32,000 nt of DNA from Breznakia blatticola (GTDB taxonomy: Bacteria > Bacillota_I > Bacilli_A > Erysipelotrichales > Erysipelotrichaceae): the NCBI RefSeq assembly GCF_004365815.1, contig NZ_SODD01000010.1, forward strand, positions 29,127-61,126, read 5' to 3'. Positions 1-8,683 of this stretch are shown here, piece by piece; the first letter of the stretch is position 1, and each line of letters begins with the position of its first letter. A program made the position numbers and the translations under genes. The notes under the pieces are model-generated. The model had not been told where the DNA came from, searched no databases, and saw nothing but the letters and a program-made list of their open reading frames with translations.

Positions 1-350
1 TCGGGAAATACCTCTTTTCGTTCTTTATACATGATGAGTGGATACAACAGTATCGAAAGTTACTTGTTTTGGAACAGTTTCATAATAGAGATATTGCACA
101 GCATTATACGAATCAGTATTTCAAGGATCCACTTAATTATTTGGAGTCATTATTTTCATCAATGATGGATAACAATCAAATGCATGTATATAATGCAAAA
201 ATTATTGCTATGCATTTTTATGCACCTATAAAACAGTTAATTGATCTATGCGATTCAGATGCTCAATTTGAAAATGAAGCGCTTGTATTACTAGAACAAC
301 ACTTACAACAGTTCAATGCGTTATATAGAGTAGAGGAGCATCAATTATGA
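1..350 (+). CDS. Hypothetical protein, 5'-truncated by the window edge. Possibly the C-terminal ligand-binding half of a TetR-family regulator.
   Basis: The frame of the tracked ORF 69..350 stays open back to nt 3 (GKYLFSFFIHDEWIQQYRKLLV...), so the TTG at 69 is not the real start. The sequence looks helical and non-membrane. The stop overlaps the next gene's ATG (ATGA at 347). The TetR assignment is a weak impression only. Confidence 0.35.
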   Translation, partial: GKYLFSFFIHDEWIQQYRKLLVLEQFHNRDIAQHYTNQYFKDPLNYLESLFSSMMDNNQMHVYNAKIIAMHFYAPIKQLIDLCDSDAQFENEALVLLEQHLQQFNALYRVEEHQL

Positions 351-997
351 AACGTAGAAGAATTCAATATTTTGGGCTTATGGGTATTGTGAGTTTTATA
401 GCGTATGTTATGACAATTACATGTTCAACTTTTGCTTATCCTAATTATAATTGGATGTCACAAGCAGTAAGCGATTTATTTGCATTAGATTCTCCTGCTC
501 TTGGTTTGTGGAATCAACTAACCATTGTATATATGGCAAGTGGAATTGTTAGTATCACACTTGTTTATGTGTATATAGAAAATAAGTTAAATCAATGGAT
601 TCAATTAGGTATCGGATTATTCACTTTAATGAATTGGATTTCTTGTATAGGCTATCAATTATTTCCATTATCACAAAAAGGATATGCAGGTACATTTACG
701 GACTTCATGCATACATATGTAGTTACACTACTTGTTGTTTTATTGTCTATTACGTCGTTGATATGTATTATCATAGGTGGATATAAAGATAAAACCTATA
801 TCAATTTATCTAGATGGGCTGCTACTTCGCTACTATTTATGACGTTTGGAGCAATCGGAGTAGGTATTGTCCCTTCAGAATTCTTTGGAATTCCTGAACG
901 GTTCAGCGTTTTATCAGCGACTTTTTTTAATGCTGTACTTGGATATTATTTATATAGAGGGTTTCAATTTCCAACTAAAAAGCAACGGGTATTATAA
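347..997 (+). CDS. Polytopic membrane protein, DUF998-like
   Basis: 216 aa with about 6 hydrophobic segments. The N-terminus (RRRIQYFGLMGIVSFIAYV ... MSQAVSDL) resembles DUF998 proteins. It is translationally coupled to the upstream ORF. Confidence 0.55.
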   Translation: MKRRRIQYFGLMGIVSFIAYVMTITCSTFAYPNYNWMSQAVSDLFALDSPALGLWNQLTIVYMASGIVSITLVYVYIENKLNQWIQLGIGLFTLMNWISCIGYQLFPLSQKGYAGTFTDFMHTYVVTLLVVLLSITSLICIIIGGYKDKTYINLSRWAATSLLFMTFGAIGVGIVPSEFFGIPERFSVLSATFFNAVLGYYLYRGFQFPTKKQRVL

Positions 998-1462
998 CTC
1001 GTTGCTTTTGTTTTTCATTAGTTTTTGTAGCAATGCTTCACAACCAATAACGACATCTACGTAGGTTGTCTCATAATCACCAGTATACCAGGGATCAGCA
1101 ATACCTCGTTTTAATGACGTTAAATCTAATAGTTTGAAAACACGATCATCTTTAAGATTTAACATCCGTTTTGTGTTATTCACATTTGCATCATCCATAC
1201 ATATAAAATAATCATATGCTTGTGCATCTGAAGCTATGAGACGGGTTGCTTGATGTCTAGTGTATGGTATATCTTTTGCATTTAAAATGCGTTTGGTCCC
1301 AGGGTGCATATCATTTCCAATTTCCTCATTGCTAGTAGCTCTTGAAACAATTGTATAACCTTCAAGGTTTGCTTTTTTCACCATGTCTTTAAATACATAT
1401 TCAGCCATTGGTGAACGACAAATATTGCCATGACATACAAAACAAATTCTTTTTTTATCCAT
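992..1462 (-). CDS. Low-molecular-weight protein-tyrosine phosphatase
   Basis: It carries the P-loop CFVCHGNICRSPMAE (CX5R-S) and a general-acid motif in IADPWYTGD. I moved the start to the internal ATG at 1462 because a GGAG lies 6 nt upstream of it on the minus strand (aaaaaGGAGttcataATG). The tracked start at 1486 has no SD. Confidence 0.85.
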   Translation of the reverse strand: MDKKRICFVCHGNICRSPMAEYVFKDMVKKANLEGYTIVSRATSNEEIGNDMHPGTKRILNAKDIPYTRHQATRLIASDAQAYDYFICMDDANVNNTKRMLNLKDDRVFKLLDLTSLKRGIADPWYTGDYETTYVDVVIGCEALLQKLMKNKSNEL

Positions 1463-1572
1463 TATGAACTCCTTTTTATCATTCATATTTTAACACGAAA
1501 TTCATCAAGTAATCGCTTACTATCTATACAATTTCGCATTTGCTATAATAGAGATATAAAAGCCTATGTAAT

Positions 1573-1596
1573 TTTGTCACTAAAGGGTGTGACAAA
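1573..1596 (+). promoter_or_regulatory. Inverted repeat TTTGTCAC-N8-GTGACAAA, candidate MtlR operator
   Basis: The arms are perfect 8-bp repeats at 1573..1580 and 1589..1596. The centre lies about 63 bp upstream of the predicted +1 of the PTS operon. It resembles the TTGnCAC...GTGnCAA repeats I recall for Bacillus/Geobacillus MtlR sites (from memory). Confidence 0.45.
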
Positions 1597-1612
1597 CATG
1601 ATTTTCGTTTTA

Positions 1613-1641
1613 TTGATAGATGGATAAGCCTCTTTTACAAT
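1613..1641 (+). promoter_or_regulatory. Sigma-A-type promoter of the PTS operon (-35 TTGATA, 17-bp spacer, -10 TACAAT)
   Basis: TTGATA lies at 1613..1618 and TACAAT at 1636..1641, with a spacer of exactly 17 nt. The SD AGAGGAG and the ATG at 1685 lie downstream. Confidence 0.55.
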
Positions 1642-1684
1642 GAAAGTGTCAAAGGAAGTCTTAGACAGAAAAGAGGAGATTTAA

Positions 1685-3073
1685 ATGAAAGAAGGTATTC
1701 AAAAGTTTGGTCGATTCCTGAGTGGAATGGTAATGCCAAACATCGCAGCATTTATTGCTTGGGGTTTAATCACTGCTTTATTTATTGAAACTGGTTGGTT
1801 ACCAAATGCGAAGTTTGCAGCTTTAGTTGGTCCGATGCTGACATACTTGCTTCCAATTCTAATTGGTTATACAGGTGGTCATATGATCTACAAACAGCGT
1901 GGTGGTGTTGTAGCAGCTATTGCATCACTTGGTGTTATTGGTGGTGGACTTAACTTATTAGGGGAAGGTCAAAACGTAACGATGTTCTTAGGTGTTATGA
2001 TTATTGCACCAATTGCTGGTTACTTGACTAAGAAAATGGATGCAATGCTAGATGGACATGTCAAAGGTGGTTTTGAGATGTTGGTAAACAACTTCTCAGC
2101 TGGTATTCTTGGATTTATTCTAGCATTAATTGGAATGGTTGTAATTGGTCCAGTAAGTTTAGCAATCAATGATTTTCTAGGAGCAGCAGTTGATGTATTG
2201 GTAGAAAATAATATGTTACCGTTAACATCAATCTTCGTTGAACCTGCAAAAGTTTTATTCTTAAACAATGCAATTAATCATGGTATTTTCACCCCAATGG
2301 GAGCAGAACAAGTACTAGAAACAGGAAAATCAATTTTCTATTTAATTGAAGCAAACCCTGGTCCAGGTCTTGGATTATTGCTTGTATATTCTATCTTTGG
2401 AAAAGGTATGGCAAAAGCAAGTGCACCAGGAGCGGCAATCATCCACTTCTTTGGTGGAATTCACGAAATTTACTTTCCATACGTTATGATGAATCCATTG
2501 TTAATTGTTGCAATGATGGCAGGAGGAGCTAGTGGAGTATTCATTAATGTGATTTTCAACAGTGGATTAACTGGTCCAGCAAGCCCAGGAAGTATTATTG
2601 CAATAATGGGTATGGCTGAAAAAGGTAGCTTCTTAGGTGTTGCATTAAGTGTTGTTGTAAGTTGCGTAGTTACATTTGTGGTAGGAGCATTTATCTTAAA
2701 ACTAACTAATGGAAAAGATGTTGACTTAGAAGATGCACAAGCACAAGTGAATGACCGTAAAGCTGAATCAAAAGGGATTCAACAAGCATCAACGACAATT
2801 ACAAAAGTTGTATTTGCATGTGATGCAGGAATGGGATCTAGTGCAATGGGAGCAACCACACTAACAAAGAAACTAAAAGATGCAGGAATGGATTTAAAAG
2901 TAGAACATTACGCGATTGAAGAAATTCCTAAAGATGCACAAATCATTGTGACACATCAAAGTTTAGCAGATAGAGTACGTTCAACTGTACCAAGTGCGAC
3001 AGTAATGGAAATCACCAACTTTATGGGTGGAGAAGAATACGATCGCATTGTTGAAGAAATAGCAAAACGATAA
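1685..3073 (+). CDS. mtlA: PTS mannitol-family transporter subunit EIICB
   Basis: 462 aa. The N-terminus is a typical MtlA EIIC (MKEGIQKFGRFLSGMVMPNIAAFIAWG...). The C-terminus is an EIIB-Mtl domain with the phospho-Cys motif VVFACDAGMGSSAMGAT. There is no EIIA domain. Confidence 0.9.
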   Translation: MKEGIQKFGRFLSGMVMPNIAAFIAWGLITALFIETGWLPNAKFAALVGPMLTYLLPILIGYTGGHMIYKQRGGVVAAIASLGVIGGGLNLLGEGQNVTMFLGVMIIAPIAGYLTKKMDAMLDGHVKGGFEMLVNNFSAGILGFILALIGMVVIGPVSLAINDFLGAAVDVLVENNMLPLTSIFVEPAKVLFLNNAINHGIFTPMGAEQVLETGKSIFYLIEANPGPGLGLLLVYSIFGKGMAKASAPGAAIIHFFGGIHEIYFPYVMMNPLLIVAMMAGGASGVFINVIFNSGLTGPASPGSIIAIMGMAEKGSFLGVALSVVVSCVVTFVVGAFILKLTNGKDVDLEDAQAQVNDRKAESKGIQQASTTITKVVFACDAGMGSSAMGATTLTKKLKDAGMDLKVEHYAIEEIPKDAQIIVTHQSLADRVRSTVPSATVMEITNFMGGEEYDRIVEEIAKR

Positions 3074-3093
3074 CATAAGAAGGGAGAAGGCAC

Positions 3094-5184
3094 ATGATTG
3101 TATCACCAAGATTAAGCAAAATTCTACAGTTGTGTTTGGAACAAGATACTGATGAATTTATGAGCATGGATGAGCTTTCTTCCTTACTTAAAATAAGTAA
3201 ACGAACTTTATTTCGCGAGATTCAAGATATTGCATATGTCCTAGAACCATTTCAATTACAAATGATTTCAAAAACTGGTTTGGGACTACAAATTGTAGGT
3301 GAAAAAGAAAACAAAGAACAATTATATCAACAACTACAAAGCCAAAAACATAGTTATCTAATTAAAGAAGATCGAAGAAAGCTTTTAATACTTGAAATCT
3401 TACGCGCAAATGAAGTTCAAAAATTATACTATTATGCAGATGTATTCCAAGTTTCTCAAGCAACCATTCGTAATGATTTAGATTGTATCGAATCATGGTT
3501 TGAAAACTTTAACTTACAAATCCATCGTACACCTGGATTAGGTATTGAACTTGTAGGTGATGAGTTGAATTATCGTAAAGCGCTCACGGCTATTTTAAAC
3601 GAATCACTTGCAAGTAAACATGATACACAAGTAGATATGTACAATTCGCAAAGTCTACTAAATGAGGTGTTTACTCAAGATGAAGGTATTTTTGGATTAC
3701 TAAATCAAGAGATTCTTACGAAAGTCTTAGCAATATTTGAAACACACGGAGAACAACTTGGTTTAATTCAATACGCACAAAGTTCGTATATTGGTTTGAT
3801 GATACATTTAGTTGTTGCTATTGATCGTATTCAAAAGCATGAAGAAATTAAAGAGAACACATATGTAGTTGAAATGATGGTGCATGATCCATCATATCAA
3901 CAAGCAAAGAAATTTAAGCAAATTATAGATGAAACCTTTGCGATTCAAATGCCTGAAGCAGAAGTTGCTTTTATTGCAATGCATATGAAAGCTGCAAAAC
4001 TAACAAAGAGACAGGTCAGCGAACCAAATGAATTATTATCTTATTACAGTGAAGAAGAATTATTAACACTTATTGATCAGATGATTATGCATTTGCCAAA
4101 ACCATATGATGTATTGCTTAAAGATGATGATGAATTGCTTACAGGCTTAATTGCGCATTTACGTCCAACACTTATTCGATTAAAACATCAAATGTCGATT
4201 TATAATCCATTACTTGATGACGTAAAAAAACAATATGCAACCATCTATGAATATGCAAGAAAAGCAGGAAGGGTTCTTGAAAAAAAATATGAATATACAC
4301 TTCCTGAAGATGAAATTGCATACATTGCAATGCATATAGGTGCTGCAATTGAAAGAAGTAAACGTGCGAAGCCAATGTTTAAAGAGATTCATGTTGGAAT
4401 TGTATGTGCATCAGGAATCGGTGTTTCTGCTTTATTACAAGCAAAACTAGCAAAAATTGTAGATAGTCATGTACATTTAGAAACATTAAGTATGGATCAA
4501 GTACATGCTCAGGATTACACATGTGAGTTGTTACTGACAACTATGGCGTTACCTGATACGACAAAGGCAATACTAATTAATCCATTATTGCCACCTGAAG
4601 ATGAAATCAAAGTAAAAGATGCAATCAGCAAAACGAGAATGACGACACGTTATAAAAGTCAAACAAGAAAAGAAGGTAGTCCAATTGATAAACTAGCAAA
4701 TACGGTACTTGATGTTCTAGAAAGTTTTAGTATTGAAGTTGTAGATTATCGCTCAAGCAAACAAGATGTAATGCATGTATGTGCAACGCTTGTAAGTGAT
4801 GATGTAAGTAAGCAACAAGAAGTCATAAAGCAACTACAAAAACGTGAAGAAATGAATACGACGGTATTCTCAGATTTAGGACTTGCATTATTTCATGGAC
4901 AAGGAAGTTATGTTGATCGCGGATTGGTGAAGTTGATTCGCCCCAATCATGAAGCATTTATTCATGAAGAACTGAGTAATATTTACTTTGTATTAGTTAT
5001 GTATCTACCTGAAAACAGCAGTAAAGAACAAATGAAAATGTTAAGCATGCTATCACGAAAATTGATGGAAGATGATTTGTTCTATCAAGCATGTATGGGT
5101 GAATCGTATGCAAATGTATATCAAAAACTGGAAATGATTTTAAAAGAATACGTATTTGAAGTCATAAGTGAAAGTAGGAAATAA
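3094..5184 (+). CDS. mtlR: MtlR-type PRD-containing transcriptional activator (HTH, Mga-like HTH, PRD1, PRD2, EIIB-Gat-like, EIIA-Mtl-like)
   Basis: 696 aa. It has an N-terminal HTH (LSSLLKISKRTLFREIQDI) and duplicated PRD-type segments (AFIAMHMKAAK and AYIAMHIGAAIER). It also has an EIIB-like GIVCASGIGVSALL motif and a C-terminal EIIA-like LALFHGQ. It sits directly after mtlA, preceded by the SD GGGAGAAGG. Confidence 0.85.
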   Translation: MIVSPRLSKILQLCLEQDTDEFMSMDELSSLLKISKRTLFREIQDIAYVLEPFQLQMISKTGLGLQIVGEKENKEQLYQQLQSQKHSYLIKEDRRKLLILEILRANEVQKLYYYADVFQVSQATIRNDLDCIESWFENFNLQIHRTPGLGIELVGDELNYRKALTAILNESLASKHDTQVDMYNSQSLLNEVFTQDEGIFGLLNQEILTKVLAIFETHGEQLGLIQYAQSSYIGLMIHLVVAIDRIQKHEEIKENTYVVEMMVHDPSYQQAKKFKQIIDETFAIQMPEAEVAFIAMHMKAAKLTKRQVSEPNELLSYYSEEELLTLIDQMIMHLPKPYDVLLKDDDELLTGLIAHLRPTLIRLKHQMSIYNPLLDDVKKQYATIYEYARKAGRVLEKKYEYTLPEDEIAYIAMHIGAAIERSKRAKPMFKEIHVGIVCASGIGVSALLQAKLAKIVDSHVHLETLSMDQVHAQDYTCELLLTTMALPDTTKAILINPLLPPEDEIKVKDAISKTRMTTRYKSQTRKEGSPIDKLANTVLDVLESFSIEVVDYRSSKQDVMHVCATLVSDDVSKQQEVIKQLQKREEMNTTVFSDLGLALFHGQGSYVDRGLVKLIRPNHEAFIHEELSNIYFVLVMYLPENSSKEQMKMLSMLSRKLMEDDLFYQACMGESYANVYQKLEMILKEYVFEVISESRK

Positions 5185-5186
5185 TA

Positions 5187-5900
5187 ATGATGGATTTGAA
5201 TATATTTGTTGTGTGCGATGCAGGGATGGGTAGTAGTGCACTTGGAGCATCACTCATTCAAAAGAAATTAAAGGAACAAAATATTAATTTGCGAATACAA
5301 AATTGCAGTATTGCAGAAGTACCAAATGATGCACATATACTTATTACGCATCGTATGTTCTACAATCAATTGCAAGAAACATACACAAATGCAAAGGTGA
5401 TTACGTTTATCTCATTCACCGAAAAGCAAACCTATGAACGGATTGTTCGAGAAATTATGGAGGAATTGAAAAGACATATGATATTACATAAAGACTGTAT
5501 TGAAATAAATTGTAAAAAAGTGGATCGTAAACAAGCGATTGATGATATTGGACAAACTTTGCTTGAAGCAGGTTTTATTGAAGCAGAATATATTGAAGGA
5601 ATGCATAAAAGAGATGAATCATTAACGACGTTTATTGGAAATGATATTGCAATTCCACATGGGGAATATGAAGTGAAGCCTTTTGTAAAGCAAACGGGAC
5701 TTGCGGTTAAAATTTATCCAGAACCAATTGATTGGAATGGAAACCCAGTACGTGTTGTTATTGGAATTGCAGCCAAAGATAGTGACCATATTGAAATATT
5801 AAGTAACATTGCAATGAAATTAGGAGATATGCGTGAAGTTGAAGAATTGGTAAATTCTTGTGATATTGAGTATATTCATTCCACGCTAACAAAAGCATGA
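5187..5900 (+). CDS. PTS EIIB(Mtl)-EIIA(Mtl) fusion protein
   Basis: 237 aa. Residues 1-95 form a second EIIB-Mtl domain (IFVVCDAGMGSSALGAS) that aligns with the C-terminus of the EIICB. Residues from about 100 onward are a mannitol/fructose-type EIIA with the DIAIPHG phospho-His motif. The start could be the ATG at 5187 or 5190. Confidence 0.8.
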   Translation: MMDLNIFVVCDAGMGSSALGASLIQKKLKEQNINLRIQNCSIAEVPNDAHILITHRMFYNQLQETYTNAKVITFISFTEKQTYERIVREIMEELKRHMILHKDCIEINCKKVDRKQAIDDIGQTLLEAGFIEAEYIEGMHKRDESLTTFIGNDIAIPHGEYEVKPFVKQTGLAVKIYPEPIDWNGNPVRVVIGIAAKDSDHIEILSNIAMKLGDMREVEELVNSCDIEYIHSTLTKA

Positions 5901-6832
5901 TTTATACATTGACATGTAATCCAGCTATCGATAAAACTGCAAGCTTACAAAGTTTGCAAGTTGGAGCATTAAATCGTTTAGAAAATGTTGTAATCTCAGC
6001 AGCTGGAAAAGGTATTAATGTAAGTAAAACCTTACATACCCTCCAACAAGAAAGTGTTGTATTTGCATATTTAGCTGGAAACACTGGACAGTATATAGAA
6101 CAATCGTTGCTTGAGATGCAACTAGAAACAAAGGCTGTTTGGGTAGAGGGTAGTACACGTACAAATCTTAAGGTGATGGATGCAAATACACACCTAACAG
6201 AGTTAAATGAGCGTGGACCACATATTGATAGTGAAAAGCAATTAGAGATGCAAGCATTATTAGATGCAAATATTCAGTGTTCTGATTTACTAGTCCTTGC
6301 TGGTAGTTTATCAACAGGTATGGATAGTGATTATTATGCAAAACTAATTTCACATTTTGCCAAGAAAGGTGTAAAAGTGATTCTTGATGCAGATGGAAAT
6401 TCCTTTAAACATGCCATTAAGGAAGTTCCATTTCTAATCAAACCGAATGCATTTGAACTTTGCCAGTACATGAATGTAAAGGAAACAAATGATCCAATTA
6501 CACTTGCAAAAATGGCAAAAGAATTAATGGCTACTGGAATTGCTATGGTAGTAATTTCAATGGGAAAAGATGGTGCATTGTTTATGTATGAAGATCAAGT
6601 GATTTATGCAAAAGGACTACAGGTTGATGTGAAATCTACAGTAGGTGCAGGAGATGCAATGGTTGCAGCACTTGCATATGCAATTGAAAATAAACTTTCT
6701 TTAGAGCAAGTAGCTATACAAGCAATGGCAATTAGTGCAGGGGCATGTACAACAAGTGGTACAGAACCGGCAAGTAAAGAAATGATAGATACATTAGTAC
6801 AACAAGTCGTACTAGAAAAGATAGAGGTATAA
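5897..6832 (+). CDS. 1-phosphofructokinase family sugar-phosphate kinase (FruK/LacC/PfkB type)
   Basis: 311 aa with the N-terminus MIYTLTCNPAIDKT and a C-terminal PfkB signature VKSTVGAGDAMVAAL. An ATGA overlap couples it to the upstream gene. Confidence 0.8.
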   Translation: MIYTLTCNPAIDKTASLQSLQVGALNRLENVVISAAGKGINVSKTLHTLQQESVVFAYLAGNTGQYIEQSLLEMQLETKAVWVEGSTRTNLKVMDANTHLTELNERGPHIDSEKQLEMQALLDANIQCSDLLVLAGSLSTGMDSDYYAKLISHFAKKGVKVILDADGNSFKHAIKEVPFLIKPNAFELCQYMNVKETNDPITLAKMAKELMATGIAMVVISMGKDGALFMYEDQVIYAKGLQVDVKSTVGAGDAMVAALAYAIENKLSLEQVAIQAMAISAGACTTSGTEPASKEMIDTLVQQVVLEKIEV

Positions 6833-6833
6833 A

Positions 6834-8102
6834 ATGAAAACCAGAGCAGTTAGACTGTATGGAGTAGATGATCTTCGTTTAGAAGAATTCGAACTTCCAG
6901 AAATTAAAGATGATGAAATACTCGTACGAGTAGTAAGTGATAGTATTTGTATGTCAACATACAAAACAGTAAAACAAGGAAAAAACCACAAACGTGTTCC
7001 AGATGATGTAGATAAAAATCCAATCATTATTGGACATGAATTTGCTGGAGATATTGTAAAAGTTGGAAAGAAGTGGCAAGACCAATTTAAAGCAGGTCAA
7101 CGCTTTGCTCAACAACCAGCACTAAACTATAAAGGTAGTTTAGCTTCACCTGGGTACTCATATCCATATTTTGGTGGAGATTGTACGTACTGTATTATTC
7201 CACCTGAAGTAATGGAACTAGGATGTTTGATGGTGTATGAGGGAGATAGCTATTATAGTGCAAGTCTAGGTGAACCGATGTCTTGTATCATTGGTGGATA
7301 TCGAGCGAATTATCATACAAACAAACAAAACTATGTACATGACATGGGAATTAAAGAAGGTGGAAATCTATTAATCATGGGTGGAACGGGTCCAATGGGA
7401 CTTGGAGCGATTGATTATGCAGCTGCTGGTGATAAGAAACCAAAACGAGTTGTAGTGACGGATTTGAGTGAACAAAGAATCGAACGGGCTAGACGCGTAT
7501 TATCAGAAGCAAGTATGAAGGAAAAAGGAATTGAATTGATTTATTTCAATCCAAATAATTTTGAAGATGATACACAAGCATTACTCGATATCAGTGAAGG
7601 TAAAGGATATGATGATATCTTTGTATATGTTCCTGTTGAAAGTCTTGCGCAACAAGCAAGTAAACTATTAGCTTTTGATGGATGTATGAATATCTTTGCC
7701 GGTCCAACTGACAAGAACTTCTCTGCAATGGTGAATTTATATGATGTACACTACACAAGTACACACATCATGGGAACTACCGGAGGAACAAATGATGATT
7801 TACTTGAAGCACTTCGTTTATCTGAACAAGGTAAGATCAATCCATCTTTAATGGTTACACATATTGGTGGTTTGGATAGTGTGGTTGATACAACCATTAA
7901 CTTACCAGATATCCCAGGAGGGAAGAAGTTAATTTATACACAAATTGATCTTCCATTAACTGCGATTGATGATTTTGAATCACTAGCAAAAGAGGATCCA
8001 TTATTTGCGAAATTACATGAAAGCTGTGAGGCACATAATGGATTGTGGAATGTACAAGCCGAACAAATTTTACTTAATCATTTTAACGTCAACCAACTGT
8101 AA
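6834..8102 (+). CDS. Zinc-type medium-chain dehydrogenase, L-sorbose-1-phosphate reductase (SorE)-like
   Basis: 422 aa. The N-terminus MKTRAVRLYGVDDLRLEEFELPEIKDDEILVRVVSDSICMS...IIGHEFAG closely matches my memory of enteric SorE. It has a Rossmann motif LIMGGTGPMGLGA. The SD AGAGGT lies 1 nt after the kinase stop. Confidence 0.7.
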   Translation: MKTRAVRLYGVDDLRLEEFELPEIKDDEILVRVVSDSICMSTYKTVKQGKNHKRVPDDVDKNPIIIGHEFAGDIVKVGKKWQDQFKAGQRFAQQPALNYKGSLASPGYSYPYFGGDCTYCIIPPEVMELGCLMVYEGDSYYSASLGEPMSCIIGGYRANYHTNKQNYVHDMGIKEGGNLLIMGGTGPMGLGAIDYAAAGDKKPKRVVVTDLSEQRIERARRVLSEASMKEKGIELIYFNPNNFEDDTQALLDISEGKGYDDIFVYVPVESLAQQASKLLAFDGCMNIFAGPTDKNFSAMVNLYDVHYTSTHIMGTTGGTNDDLLEALRLSEQGKINPSLMVTHIGGLDSVVDTTINLPDIPGGKKLIYTQIDLPLTAIDDFESLAKEDPLFAKLHESCEAHNGLWNVQAEQILLNHFNVNQL

Positions 8103-8118
8103 TACAGTTGGTTTTCTT
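8091..8118 (+). terminator. Rho-independent terminator of the PTS operon
   Basis: The stem AACCAACTG (8091..8099) pairs with CAGTTGGTT (8105..8113) around the loop TAATA, followed by TTCTT. It overlaps the stop codon. Confidence 0.7.
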
Positions 8119-8142
8119 AACGTAATAAGTCAGTCACTTTCG

Positions 8143-8215: not shown

Positions 8216-8683
8216 ATGATCCAATGGGAAGTAATTAGAGAATCGGAGAAATTGAAATCCGAAATCAGTGCTGTAAGTCAACAAATCTTACAACCATTTT
8301 ATGAAAAATTTAGAACTAATGCATTACAGTTAGCAATTCTAAATGAGGCGGAATCAAATCCAAATTTAACATTAAATTCGCTTGCTGCAACTTTAAATAG
8401 AGCAGCTACAAATTTATCAGTTAAAGTAACTGCAATGGTAAAAGATGATTTACTAAAGAAAGTGGTCGCAAATCATGACCGTCGTATTATTTACATCCAA
8501 CCAACAGCGAAAGGATTGGATTTAATCCGTAAATCACGTAGTTTCATTATTAAGCGTTATGAAATGGTTGATGAAGATGATACAGATATTCAAAACTTAG
8601 TAACAGCATCAACGATTTATTTAGATAAACTATTAGAGGCAAAACGTAAACCAGTTACACAAGAATTATTTGATAGTTTATAA
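8216..8683 (+). CDS. MarR-family transcriptional regulator
   Basis: 155 aa with a winged-helix core: LQLAILNEAESNPNLTLNSLAATLNRAATNLSVKVTAMVKDDLLKKVVANHDRRIIYIQPTAKG. Confidence 0.8.
   Translation: MIQWEVIRESEKLKSEISAVSQQILQPFYEKFRTNALQLAILNEAESNPNLTLNSLAATLNRAATNLSVKVTAMVKDDLLKKVVANHDRRIIYIQPTAKGLDLIRKSRSFIIKRYEMVDEDDTDIQNLVTASTIYLDKLLEAKRKPVTQELFDSL

Follow-up and report, generated by a model that had tools for sequence, protein, structure and literature searches.

A mannitol-type phosphotransferase operon of Breznakia blatticola with FruK and a YggP/SorE-family dehydrogenase in place of MtlD, and a predicted route through fructose-1-phosphate

A five-gene mannitol-type operon

Here we describe an operon of the mannitol (Mtl) family of the phosphotransferase system (PTS) from Breznakia blatticola, a member of the Erysipelotrichales. 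The window, which is the whole stretch of DNA that was analysed, comprises 32,000 nucleotides of contig NZ_SODD01000010.1 (positions 29,127 to 61,126). The listing of open reading frames (ORFs) and profile scans of the window reveal five closely packed plus-strand genes at 1685-8102, with junctions, in order, of 20 nt, 2 nt, an ATGA overlap and 1 nt. They code for a PTS transporter (EIICB), an MtlR-type regulator with PTS regulation domains (PRD), a soluble EIIB-EIIA fusion (EIIBA), a 1-phosphofructokinase-family kinase (FruK) and a zinc dehydrogenase of the medium-chain dehydrogenase/reductase (MDR) type which belongs to the YggP/SorE family (Table 1). A first-pass annotation of the sequence had proposed a Mtl-type PTS operon of five genes at 1573-8118, and all five ORFs were found where it had placed them; the ATGA overlap, by which it considered the kinase gene to be coupled to its upstream neighbour, can be read in the sequence.

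Table 1 Features of the operon and its flanks (positions within the window).
Feature	Position	Strand	Evidence or remark
PTS EIICB, mannitol family, 462 aa	1685..3073	+	TIGR00851 mtlA, 486 versus cut-off 468
MtlR-type PRD regulator, 696 aa	3094..5184	+	Pfam: HTH_11/Mga, two PRD domains, EIIA_2
Soluble EIIB-EIIA(Mtl) fusion, 237 aa	5187..5900	+	PTS_IIB residues 5-84, PTS_EIIA_2 residues 98-236
1-phosphofructokinase-family kinase, 311 aa	5897..6832	+	TIGR03828, 303.1 versus 292; ATGA overlap with upstream gene
YggP/SorE-family zinc MDR dehydrogenase, 422 aa	6834..8102	+	Pfam: ADH_N and ADH_zinc_N
Candidate MtlR box	1573..1596	.	perfect inverted repeat TTTGTCAC-N8-GTGACAAA (TTGTCA-N10-TGACAA); 17 bp upstream of -35
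Sigma-A-type promoter-like site TTGATA-17-TACAAT	1613..1641	+	10/12 matches; best plus-strand site of the region
Terminator-like hairpin, 10-bp stem, 3-nt loop, then UUUUCUU	8091..8119	+	-12.9 kcal/mol, z = -4.2
DUF998 membrane protein	347-997		flanking gene, unrelated to operon
Low-molecular-weight phosphotyrosine phosphatase	992-1486	-	flanking gene, convergent, unrelated to operon
MarR/SarA-like regulator	8216-8683		flanking gene, unrelated to operon

EIICB, which also exceeds the cut-off of NF011663 (626 versus 589) and is built from the Pfam domains PTS_EIIC and PTS_IIB, is the sole Mtl-type EIIC of the window's genome. In the following, operons in which this type of transporter is linked to a YggP-type dehydrogenase are called YggP-type, and those in which it is linked to MtlD are called MtlD-type. 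The MtlR of the operon is 30-35% identical to MtlR proteins from MtlD-type and YggP-type operons of the same order alike. EIIB-EIIA fusions of 232-251 aa are found in MtlD-type operons of the order, too (L145-L148, L150, L152-L154). The soluble fusion is thus a lineage trait of these Erysipelotrichales and is not bound to the YggP-type tail. For the gene at 6834-8102, we predict that it codes for a mannitol-1-phosphate 2-dehydrogenase which forms fructose-1-phosphate.

Candidate transcription signals

The first-pass annotation had the five genes bracketed by one promoter, one operator and one terminator, and candidate elements of each kind could be located (Table 1). The core palindrome of the putative operator, TGTCAC-N8-GTGACA at 1575-1594, is present as a single copy in the window, where 0.02 copies are expected, and its half-sites recur upstream of EIICB at three other loci (L008, L039, L064). 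The MtlR boxes of Bacillus, which were tested by electrophoretic mobility shift assay, read TTGTCA-spacer-TGCCAA and tolerate variable spacers (PMC10992428). As the half-sites match, the candidate operator fits a mannitol operon.

Promoter-like sites are not in excess across the region (25 found, 32.8 expected by chance) and the promoter call therefore rests on the position and the quality of the site. The terminator-like hairpin begins 12 nt before the last stop codon, which it overlaps, and none of 200 shuffled sequences was equally stable. It is absent from a consensus terminator scan because its T-run is short.

The dehydrogenase and its family

When plasmid and chromosome records with annotation were searched in translation, the 422-aa dehydrogenase was found to be 53% identical to YggP from Escherichia coli, 49% identical to SorE from a complete sor operon of Klebsiella pneumoniae and about 44-45% identical to a SorE-like protein encoded in similar surroundings on a plasmid of Lactiplantibacillus plantarum. 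These alignments cover 98-100% of the length, and the identity to GatD is only 23%. The SorE-likeness noted in the first-pass annotation is therefore real, but it had been assigned to the N-terminus and in fact extends over the whole protein. A C-terminal extension of about 70 residues and an HK(R/K)VP loop are common to the dehydrogenase and the named family members, and GatD is gapped at both. Invariant in the alignment are the zinc ligands C39, H68, E69 and E147, the Rossmann GxGxxG motif (G186-G189) and D210, the Asp which closes the second Rossmann strand; conserved basic residues are H52/K53/R54 and K364/K365.

More than 8000 database proteins match the dehydrogenase, and the best 120 of them are 68-80% identical. 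Those which have been given a name are annotated as 'zinc-binding dehydrogenase', 'threonine dehydrogenase-like Zn-dependent dehydrogenase' or 'L-sorbose 1-phosphate reductase'. The gene is 94% identical to that of isolate MTC7. An AlphaFold2 model (predicted local distance difference test score 91) has the two-domain fold of zinc MDR enzymes, with polyol and threonine dehydrogenases as top matches in the PDB. No structure from the SorE/YggP family was found in the PDB, the best match being at most 22% identical.

In a tree of 96 rows, rooted on GatD, the dehydrogenase of the window is part of a 75-row clade (support 95) which includes E. coli YggP and is nearly always encoded beside a Mtl-family PTS. 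The two SorE proteins form a clade of their own (support 100) outside of it. Phylogenetic placement, a check suggested in the first-pass annotation, thus puts the 422-aa protein with YggP and apart from both SorE and the GatD outgroup, and by this tree it is not an ortholog of SorE proper. The sor-type context, a mannose-family PTS with a short-chain dehydrogenase/reductase (SDR), was seen only at two loci (L133, L134), whereas the gene of the window follows a Mtl-family PTS and FruK.

Rows between the SorE clade and the Mtl-PTS-linked clade have no PTS; their genes lie next to others that code for FGGY kinases, an aldolase II-SDR fusion and DeoR regulators. About 15 loci (L066-L086, e.g. L066, L074, L075, L082) hold the most basal members on the YggP side. 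They, too, are without a nearby PTS and are surrounded by genes for FGGY sugar kinases, an aldolase II-SDR fusion, SDRs and DeoR/PucR regulators. This setting points to ketose-1-phosphate pathways of other kinds.

SorE acts on L-sorbose-1-phosphate by reducing the keto group at C2, and L-sorbose is the C5 epimer of D-fructose. We take SorE to be the sole characterised member of the SorE/YggP family, and its reaction concerns the carbon adjoining the phosphorylated C1. Viewed from the phosphorylated end, D-glucitol-6-phosphate and D-mannitol-1-phosphate have the same configuration at C2-C4, the three carbons nearest to the phosphate. By this analogy, the SorE reaction, when moved to mannitol-1-phosphate, would yield fructose-1-phosphate.

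Distribution of YggP-type enzymes and MtlD

In the genome that contains the window (2.46 Mb, 97% complete), no MtlD above cut-off was found. The first-pass annotation had described the operon as lacking mtlD, and this holds beyond the operon: the sole Mannitol_dh_C match of the genome is a divergent 352-aa protein encoded on another contig within a mannose-type PTS cluster, and it reaches at most 131 bits where the mtlD cut-offs are 269-719.

Four queries (Mtl-type EIIC, MtlD, YggP-type enzyme and FruK) were run against 251 genomes of the same order. A Mtl-type EIIC is present in 64 genomes. Among these, 45 have only the YggP-type enzyme, 17 have only MtlD, two have both, and there is not a single genome with neither enzyme. 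Outside of these 64 genomes, the YggP-type gene occurs just once. The two solutions alternate even inside genera (g19, g4 and g63). A second sample consisted of 30 further genomes with YggP-type operons, from Lachnospiraceae, Negativicutes, Fusibacteraceae, Eubacteriaceae and others. In 14 of these, the Mannitol_dh_C domain is missing altogether, most of the remaining ones have only tagaturonate or fructuronate reductases, and MtlD above cut-off was found in one, Anaerostipes butyraticus. Among genomes with a Mtl-type PTS, the YggP-type enzyme substitutes almost perfectly for MtlD.

Two further loci came up in these comparisons. In Anaerostipes (L063:5684-13523, L065:8620-12705), three tandem YggP paralogues, 47-61% identical to the protein of the window, adjoin one Mtl-type EIICB and an MtlR-like gene, and the MtlD of A. 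butyraticus is encoded elsewhere; we regard this as a probable case of a polyol-phosphate locus that has diversified. The cluster which codes for the 352-aa protein (contig C61, L131:89-6592) has a PRD regulator divergent from the genes of a mannose-family PTS (IIA, IIB, IIC, IID), which are followed by those for an SDR sorbitol-6-phosphate dehydrogenase (NF004817, 341 versus 304) and the divergent MtlD-family protein. The cluster resembles a sor-type operon in which an MtlD-family enzyme takes the position of SorE, a mirror image of the operon described here.

Exchange of the operon tail

Genus g19 shows the alternation in one and the same operon. One genome (G164) has the gene order EIICB-MtlR-EIIBA-FruK-YggP, and three congeners have EIICB-MtlR-EIIBA-MtlD. 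The EIICB of G164 is 73-79% identical to the MtlD-linked EIICBs of the genus, which are 76-86% identical among themselves, but its identity to the remaining YggP-linked EIICBs in the comparison is no more than 55-63%. The pattern recurs for MtlR and EIIBA of this genus. Genus g63 behaves likewise, at 71% identity.

An EIIC tree of 85 rows was labelled by the downstream enzyme. The MtlD-linked rows require six label changes on it, and the approximately unbiased (AU) test rejects a single clade of MtlD-linked EIICs (p = 2e-7) as well as a single clade of YggP-linked EIICs (p = 6e-64). The reference mannitol transporter, MtlA of E. coli, has its nearest neighbours among the YggP-linked EIICs. By these comparisons, the operon tail has evidently been exchanged repeatedly on a conserved module for uptake and regulation. 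Such repeated exchange on one module is as expected if both tails handle the same PTS product.

Two genomes have mixed arrangements. In G161 (L152 and L169), a duplicate of EIICB and a FruK come after EIICB-MtlR-EIIBA-MtlD, and YggP is absent. G033 (L150/L170, L151) has EIICB-MtlR-EIIBA-FruK, with the YggP gene at a distance of 1.6 Mb.

The kinase and its linkage to the dehydrogenase

The kinase, for which a comparison with FruK and LacC had been suggested in the first-pass annotation, exceeds the cut-off of the FruK equivalog TIGR03828 and stays far below those of the LacC models (155-165 versus 409-469) and of PfkB (132 versus 353). It is the only 1-phosphofructokinase-family gene above cut-off in the genome.

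Of 67 Mtl-PTS-linked loci, 30 have FruK adjoining YggP, and along the dehydrogenase tree FruK comes and goes many times. With FruK, three gene orders are found: EIIA-FruK-YggP, FruK-EIICBA-YggP, and divergent FruK/YggP. The kinases adjoining YggP are from two clades, one of which includes fruA-linked housekeeping FruKs. Kinases from the gene order of the window have a clade of their own (support 98), a subclade found only beside YggP. The fruA-linked FruK of Fusibacter paucivorans adjoins this clade and three other fruA-linked FruKs are in the other one, in a tree the rooting of which is unsure due to long-branch references.

Across the 251 genomes, a FruK-family gene is present in 221, including all 48 genomes with YggP. 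YggP is found in none of the 30 genomes without FruK, and FruK is missing from five of the 17 MtlD-only genomes. Within genus g19, two MtlD-type members have no FruK, and the YggP-type member has it inside the operon. In five examined genomes with YggP-type operons that do not contain FruK, a strong FruK is encoded elsewhere, in four of them clearly beside fruA.

Two side observations concern the kinase and fructose uptake. In F. paucivorans (G009:C33:86419-86592; L042 9546-10001), a 92-aa frame between EIIBA and the YggP gene has a match to FruK that is confined to the final 58 positions of the latter. This frame is apparently the remnant of an operon kinase, and the fruA-linked FruK lies elsewhere in that genome. 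The only fructose-family EIIC of the B. blatticola genome is encoded on the minus strand of contig C6 (L130:2909-8216), together with IIB, IIA, a PRD regulator and a 466-aa GatZ/KbaZ-like protein, and this cluster has no fruK.

Proposed route and alternative explanations

Gene content, family membership, phyletic complementarity with MtlD, the linkage to FruK and the exchange of the tail are direct observations, and from these we infer the substrate, the oxidised position, the cofactor and the regulation of the following route. Mannitol would be imported and phosphorylated by the Mtl-family PTS (EIICB and the soluble EIIB-EIIA) to mannitol-1-phosphate, which the YggP/SorE-family zinc dehydrogenase would oxidise with NAD+ at C2, next to the phosphate, to fructose-1-phosphate. 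The FruK of the operon would convert the latter to fructose-1,6-bisphosphate, and fructose-6-phosphate and PfkA would be bypassed. The MtlR-type PRD activator would act on the TTGTCA-N10-TGACAA box and turn the operon on while the PTS drains phosphate into the substrate. The idea that a lack of PfkA is the reason for the bypass was also considered and was rejected, since PFK-family genes are present in the genome.

It is well supported by the comparisons made here that the operon represents a PTS hexitol pathway in which the last step has undergone a non-orthologous replacement by two enzymes. Beyond this, we assign a probability of about 0.6 to the reading that this is a mannitol operon with MtlD displaced by a dehydrogenase and FruK, leading from mannitol via mannitol-1-phosphate and fructose-1-phosphate to fructose-1,6-bisphosphate. 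The first-pass annotation had postulated a route via a ketose-1-phosphate, and this gains genomic support from membership in the SorE/YggP family, the substitution for MtlD, the linkage to FruK and the finding that FruK-less genomes are devoid of YggP. It had left the substrate open, and this can now be narrowed towards mannitol on account of the tail swap in genus g19, the operator resembling an MtlR box, and mannitol-positive species which have only this operon.

These species are from Megasphaera. D-mannitol fermentation was reported for Megasphaera massiliensis NP3, and M. elsdenii was listed as mannitol-positive (PMC3910696). Each of the two has a single Mtl-type EIIC, which is part of a locus mtlR-EIICB-EIIA-YggP, and no MtlD; from the MtlD superfamily they have tagaturonate/fructuronate reductases only, and FruK is encoded beside fruA. 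The phenotype gives weak support to the mannitol assignment, as these are API-strip data from a genome announcement. In an RNA-seq table for Vibrio parahaemolyticus, three consecutive genes, annotated as 'L-sorbose 1-phosphate reductase', Mtl IICB and Mtl IIA, vary in concert (PMC7756092). Defluviitalea phaphyphila grows on mannitol, and a pathway figure legend names MPDH and FRUK without gene-level detail, so that we treat this as a lead only (PMC4818487). Our full-text literature search returned no description of a mannitol-1-phosphate 2-dehydrogenase, of a fructose-1-phosphate reductase or of a function for yggP, cmtA or cmtB. To our knowledge, just two routes are given in pathway databases, that of MtlD and that via mannitol 2-dehydrogenase and fructokinase. 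The route proposed here is apparently undescribed. The operon type is very common.

Several observations weigh against the proposed route. The YggP clade is separate from the clade of the characterised SorE, and the role of the enzyme is read from sequence; oxidation of hexitol phosphates at the far end is also within the reach of zinc MDR enzymes, with GatD as an example. The kinase passes the FruK cut-off narrowly (303 versus 292), and kinases from the gene order of the window form a separate clade. FruK is found beside an MtlD-type operon in the absence of YggP in G161, and in G033 the dehydrogenase is remote from the genes for transporter, regulator and kinase. Surveyed genomes are related, so that counts such as 45 of 64 overstate independence; they are descriptive and no statistical test is attached to them. 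Both systems are kept in some genomes, side by side in Catenisphaera (L056/L159) and also in G204 and in Breznakia, which has several MtlD-like genes; Anaerostipes has a real MtlD in addition to its three YggP paralogues, and several operons code for two different EIICs (L011, L037-L039, L158). As some genomes carry both systems, some of the YggP-linked family members probably have other substrates.

The same retained systems, double EIICs and paralogues would also be in line with a ketose-1-phosphate pathway which serves a different polyol, for instance D-glucitol with its phosphate at C1 or a less common hexitol, with mannitol being at most a side substrate; M. massiliensis was reported to be positive for sorbitol and arabitol, too (PMC3910696). 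We nevertheless consider this unlikely, given that 62 of the 64 Mtl-PTS genomes have exactly one of the two enzymes and none has neither, that the EIICs are not sorted by the downstream enzyme and have E. coli MtlA among the YggP-linked ones, and that the transporter is retained when the tail is swapped within a genus. In addition, if the stereospecificity of SorE is kept, the configurations would pair fructose-1-phosphate with mannitol-1-phosphate and not with glucitol-1-phosphate. Galactitol/tagatose metabolism was rejected as the main reading: the kinase is far below the LacC cut-offs, and two of the three genes for class II ketose-bisphosphate aldolases were examined and are both in unrelated clusters, one with an ascorbate-type PTS and one with a hydroxy-acid reductase (the third gene is on C36). 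The former cluster (contig C24, L167:3403-9924, minus strand) codes for an ascorbate-family EIIC, a PRD/EIIA regulator, the aldolase (TIGR00167, 280 versus 216) and a ribokinase-like kinase, and is another uncharacterised sugar-phosphate cluster.

A functional analogue of MtlD, which oxidises the far end in the way that GatD proves to be possible for a zinc MDR enzyme and thus forms fructose-6-phosphate, is in our view more doubtful still. FruK would then be present for other reasons, e.g. for PTS-derived fructose-1-phosphate, and about half of the operons indeed lack it, it is common anyway in the order, and G161 has it next to an MtlD-type operon. However, the enzyme resembles SorE much more than GatD (49% versus 23% identity), the recruitment of FruK to the side of YggP involved three gene orders and two kinase lineages, and YggP does not occur in any FruK-less genome. 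The swap in genus g19 exchanges MtlD for FruK and YggP as a unit, and two MtlD-type members of this genus manage without any FruK. Very improbable is a true L-sorbose system, where the Mtl-family PTS imports L-sorbose and the enzyme acts as SorE to form glucitol-6-phosphate, which is oxidised elsewhere. It would account for the name 'L-sorbose 1-phosphate reductase' given to database relatives, and an SDR sorbitol-6-phosphate dehydrogenase is encoded on another contig of the genome, but this SDR belongs to a different PTS operon. Genuine SorE proteins are a separate clade and share an operon with a mannose-family sorbose PTS and an SDR, FruK would be left without a role, and the phyletic trade-off is with MtlD and not with sor genes.

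Implications

Mannitol is a common polyol of diet, plants and algae, and its PTS/MtlD pathway is a textbook case. It seems rather likely that the operon represents a third bacterial mannitol route, consisting of a PTS, a YggP/SorE-family mannitol-1-phosphate 2-dehydrogenase and FruK. Such a route would have displaced MtlD repeatedly, would be in the majority among Mtl-PTS carriers in at least one Firmicute order (45 of 64), would be widespread among Lachnospiraceae, Negativicutes and further anaerobes of the gut, and would provide cmtBA-yggP of E. coli with a function.

If the YggP-type enzyme does form fructose-1-phosphate, pathway databases and genome predictions based on mtlD miss the main mannitol route in many gut anaerobes, and thousands of genes annotated as 'L-sorbose 1-phosphate reductase' or 'zinc-binding dehydrogenase' could be given a better name. 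Fructose-1-phosphate, known as a signal for FruR/Cra-type regulators, would then report mannitol, too. The same chemistry would explain the long-'cryptic' cmtBA-yggP cluster of E. coli and make the function of the yggP/cmt cluster testable.

Comparison with known systems

The 'cryptic mannitol' cluster of E. coli K-12, cmtB-cmtA-yggP-yggF(glpX2)-fumE(yggD)-yggC, likewise combines a Mtl-family PTS with a YggP-type dehydrogenase, the gene of which comes directly after those for the PTS, and has no MtlD. It differs from the operon described here in having neither a PRD-type MtlR nor FruK; instead, it has a class II fructose-1,6-bisphosphatase paralogue, an MtlR-like/FumE protein and a P-loop kinase, and E. 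coli keeps the normal mtlADR operon in addition.

SorE from Klebsiella and the SorE-like protein from Lactiplantibacillus have the family, the length class, the C-terminal extension, the zinc ligands and the HK(R/K) loop in common with the enzyme of the window. The predicted chemistry would also be alike, interconverting a C2 keto group beside a C1 phosphate with the alditol phosphate. SorE, however, runs reductively on the C5 epimer of fructose-1-phosphate, and its genomic partners are a mannose-family PTS and an SDR glucitol-6-phosphate dehydrogenase, never a Mtl-type PTS or FruK.

With the canonical Firmicute operon mtlA-mtlR-mtlF-mtlD (Bacillus/Geobacillus type), the operon of the window shares EIICB, an MtlR-type activator, an operator resembling an MtlR box, EIIA and the order of the first three genes. 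The canonical operon ends with MtlD, a member of the long-chain mannitol dehydrogenase family which forms fructose-6-phosphate, whereas FruK and an unrelated zinc MDR enzyme are found here; in genus g19, the canonical and the FruK-YggP modules are directly homologous. The fruA-fruK pathway of fructose uptake, finally, has the same predicted last step and a kinase of the same family. There, fructose-1-phosphate originates from PTS-dependent uptake of fructose, while in the operon of Breznakia blatticola it is predicted to be an intracellular product of hexitol phosphate oxidation.

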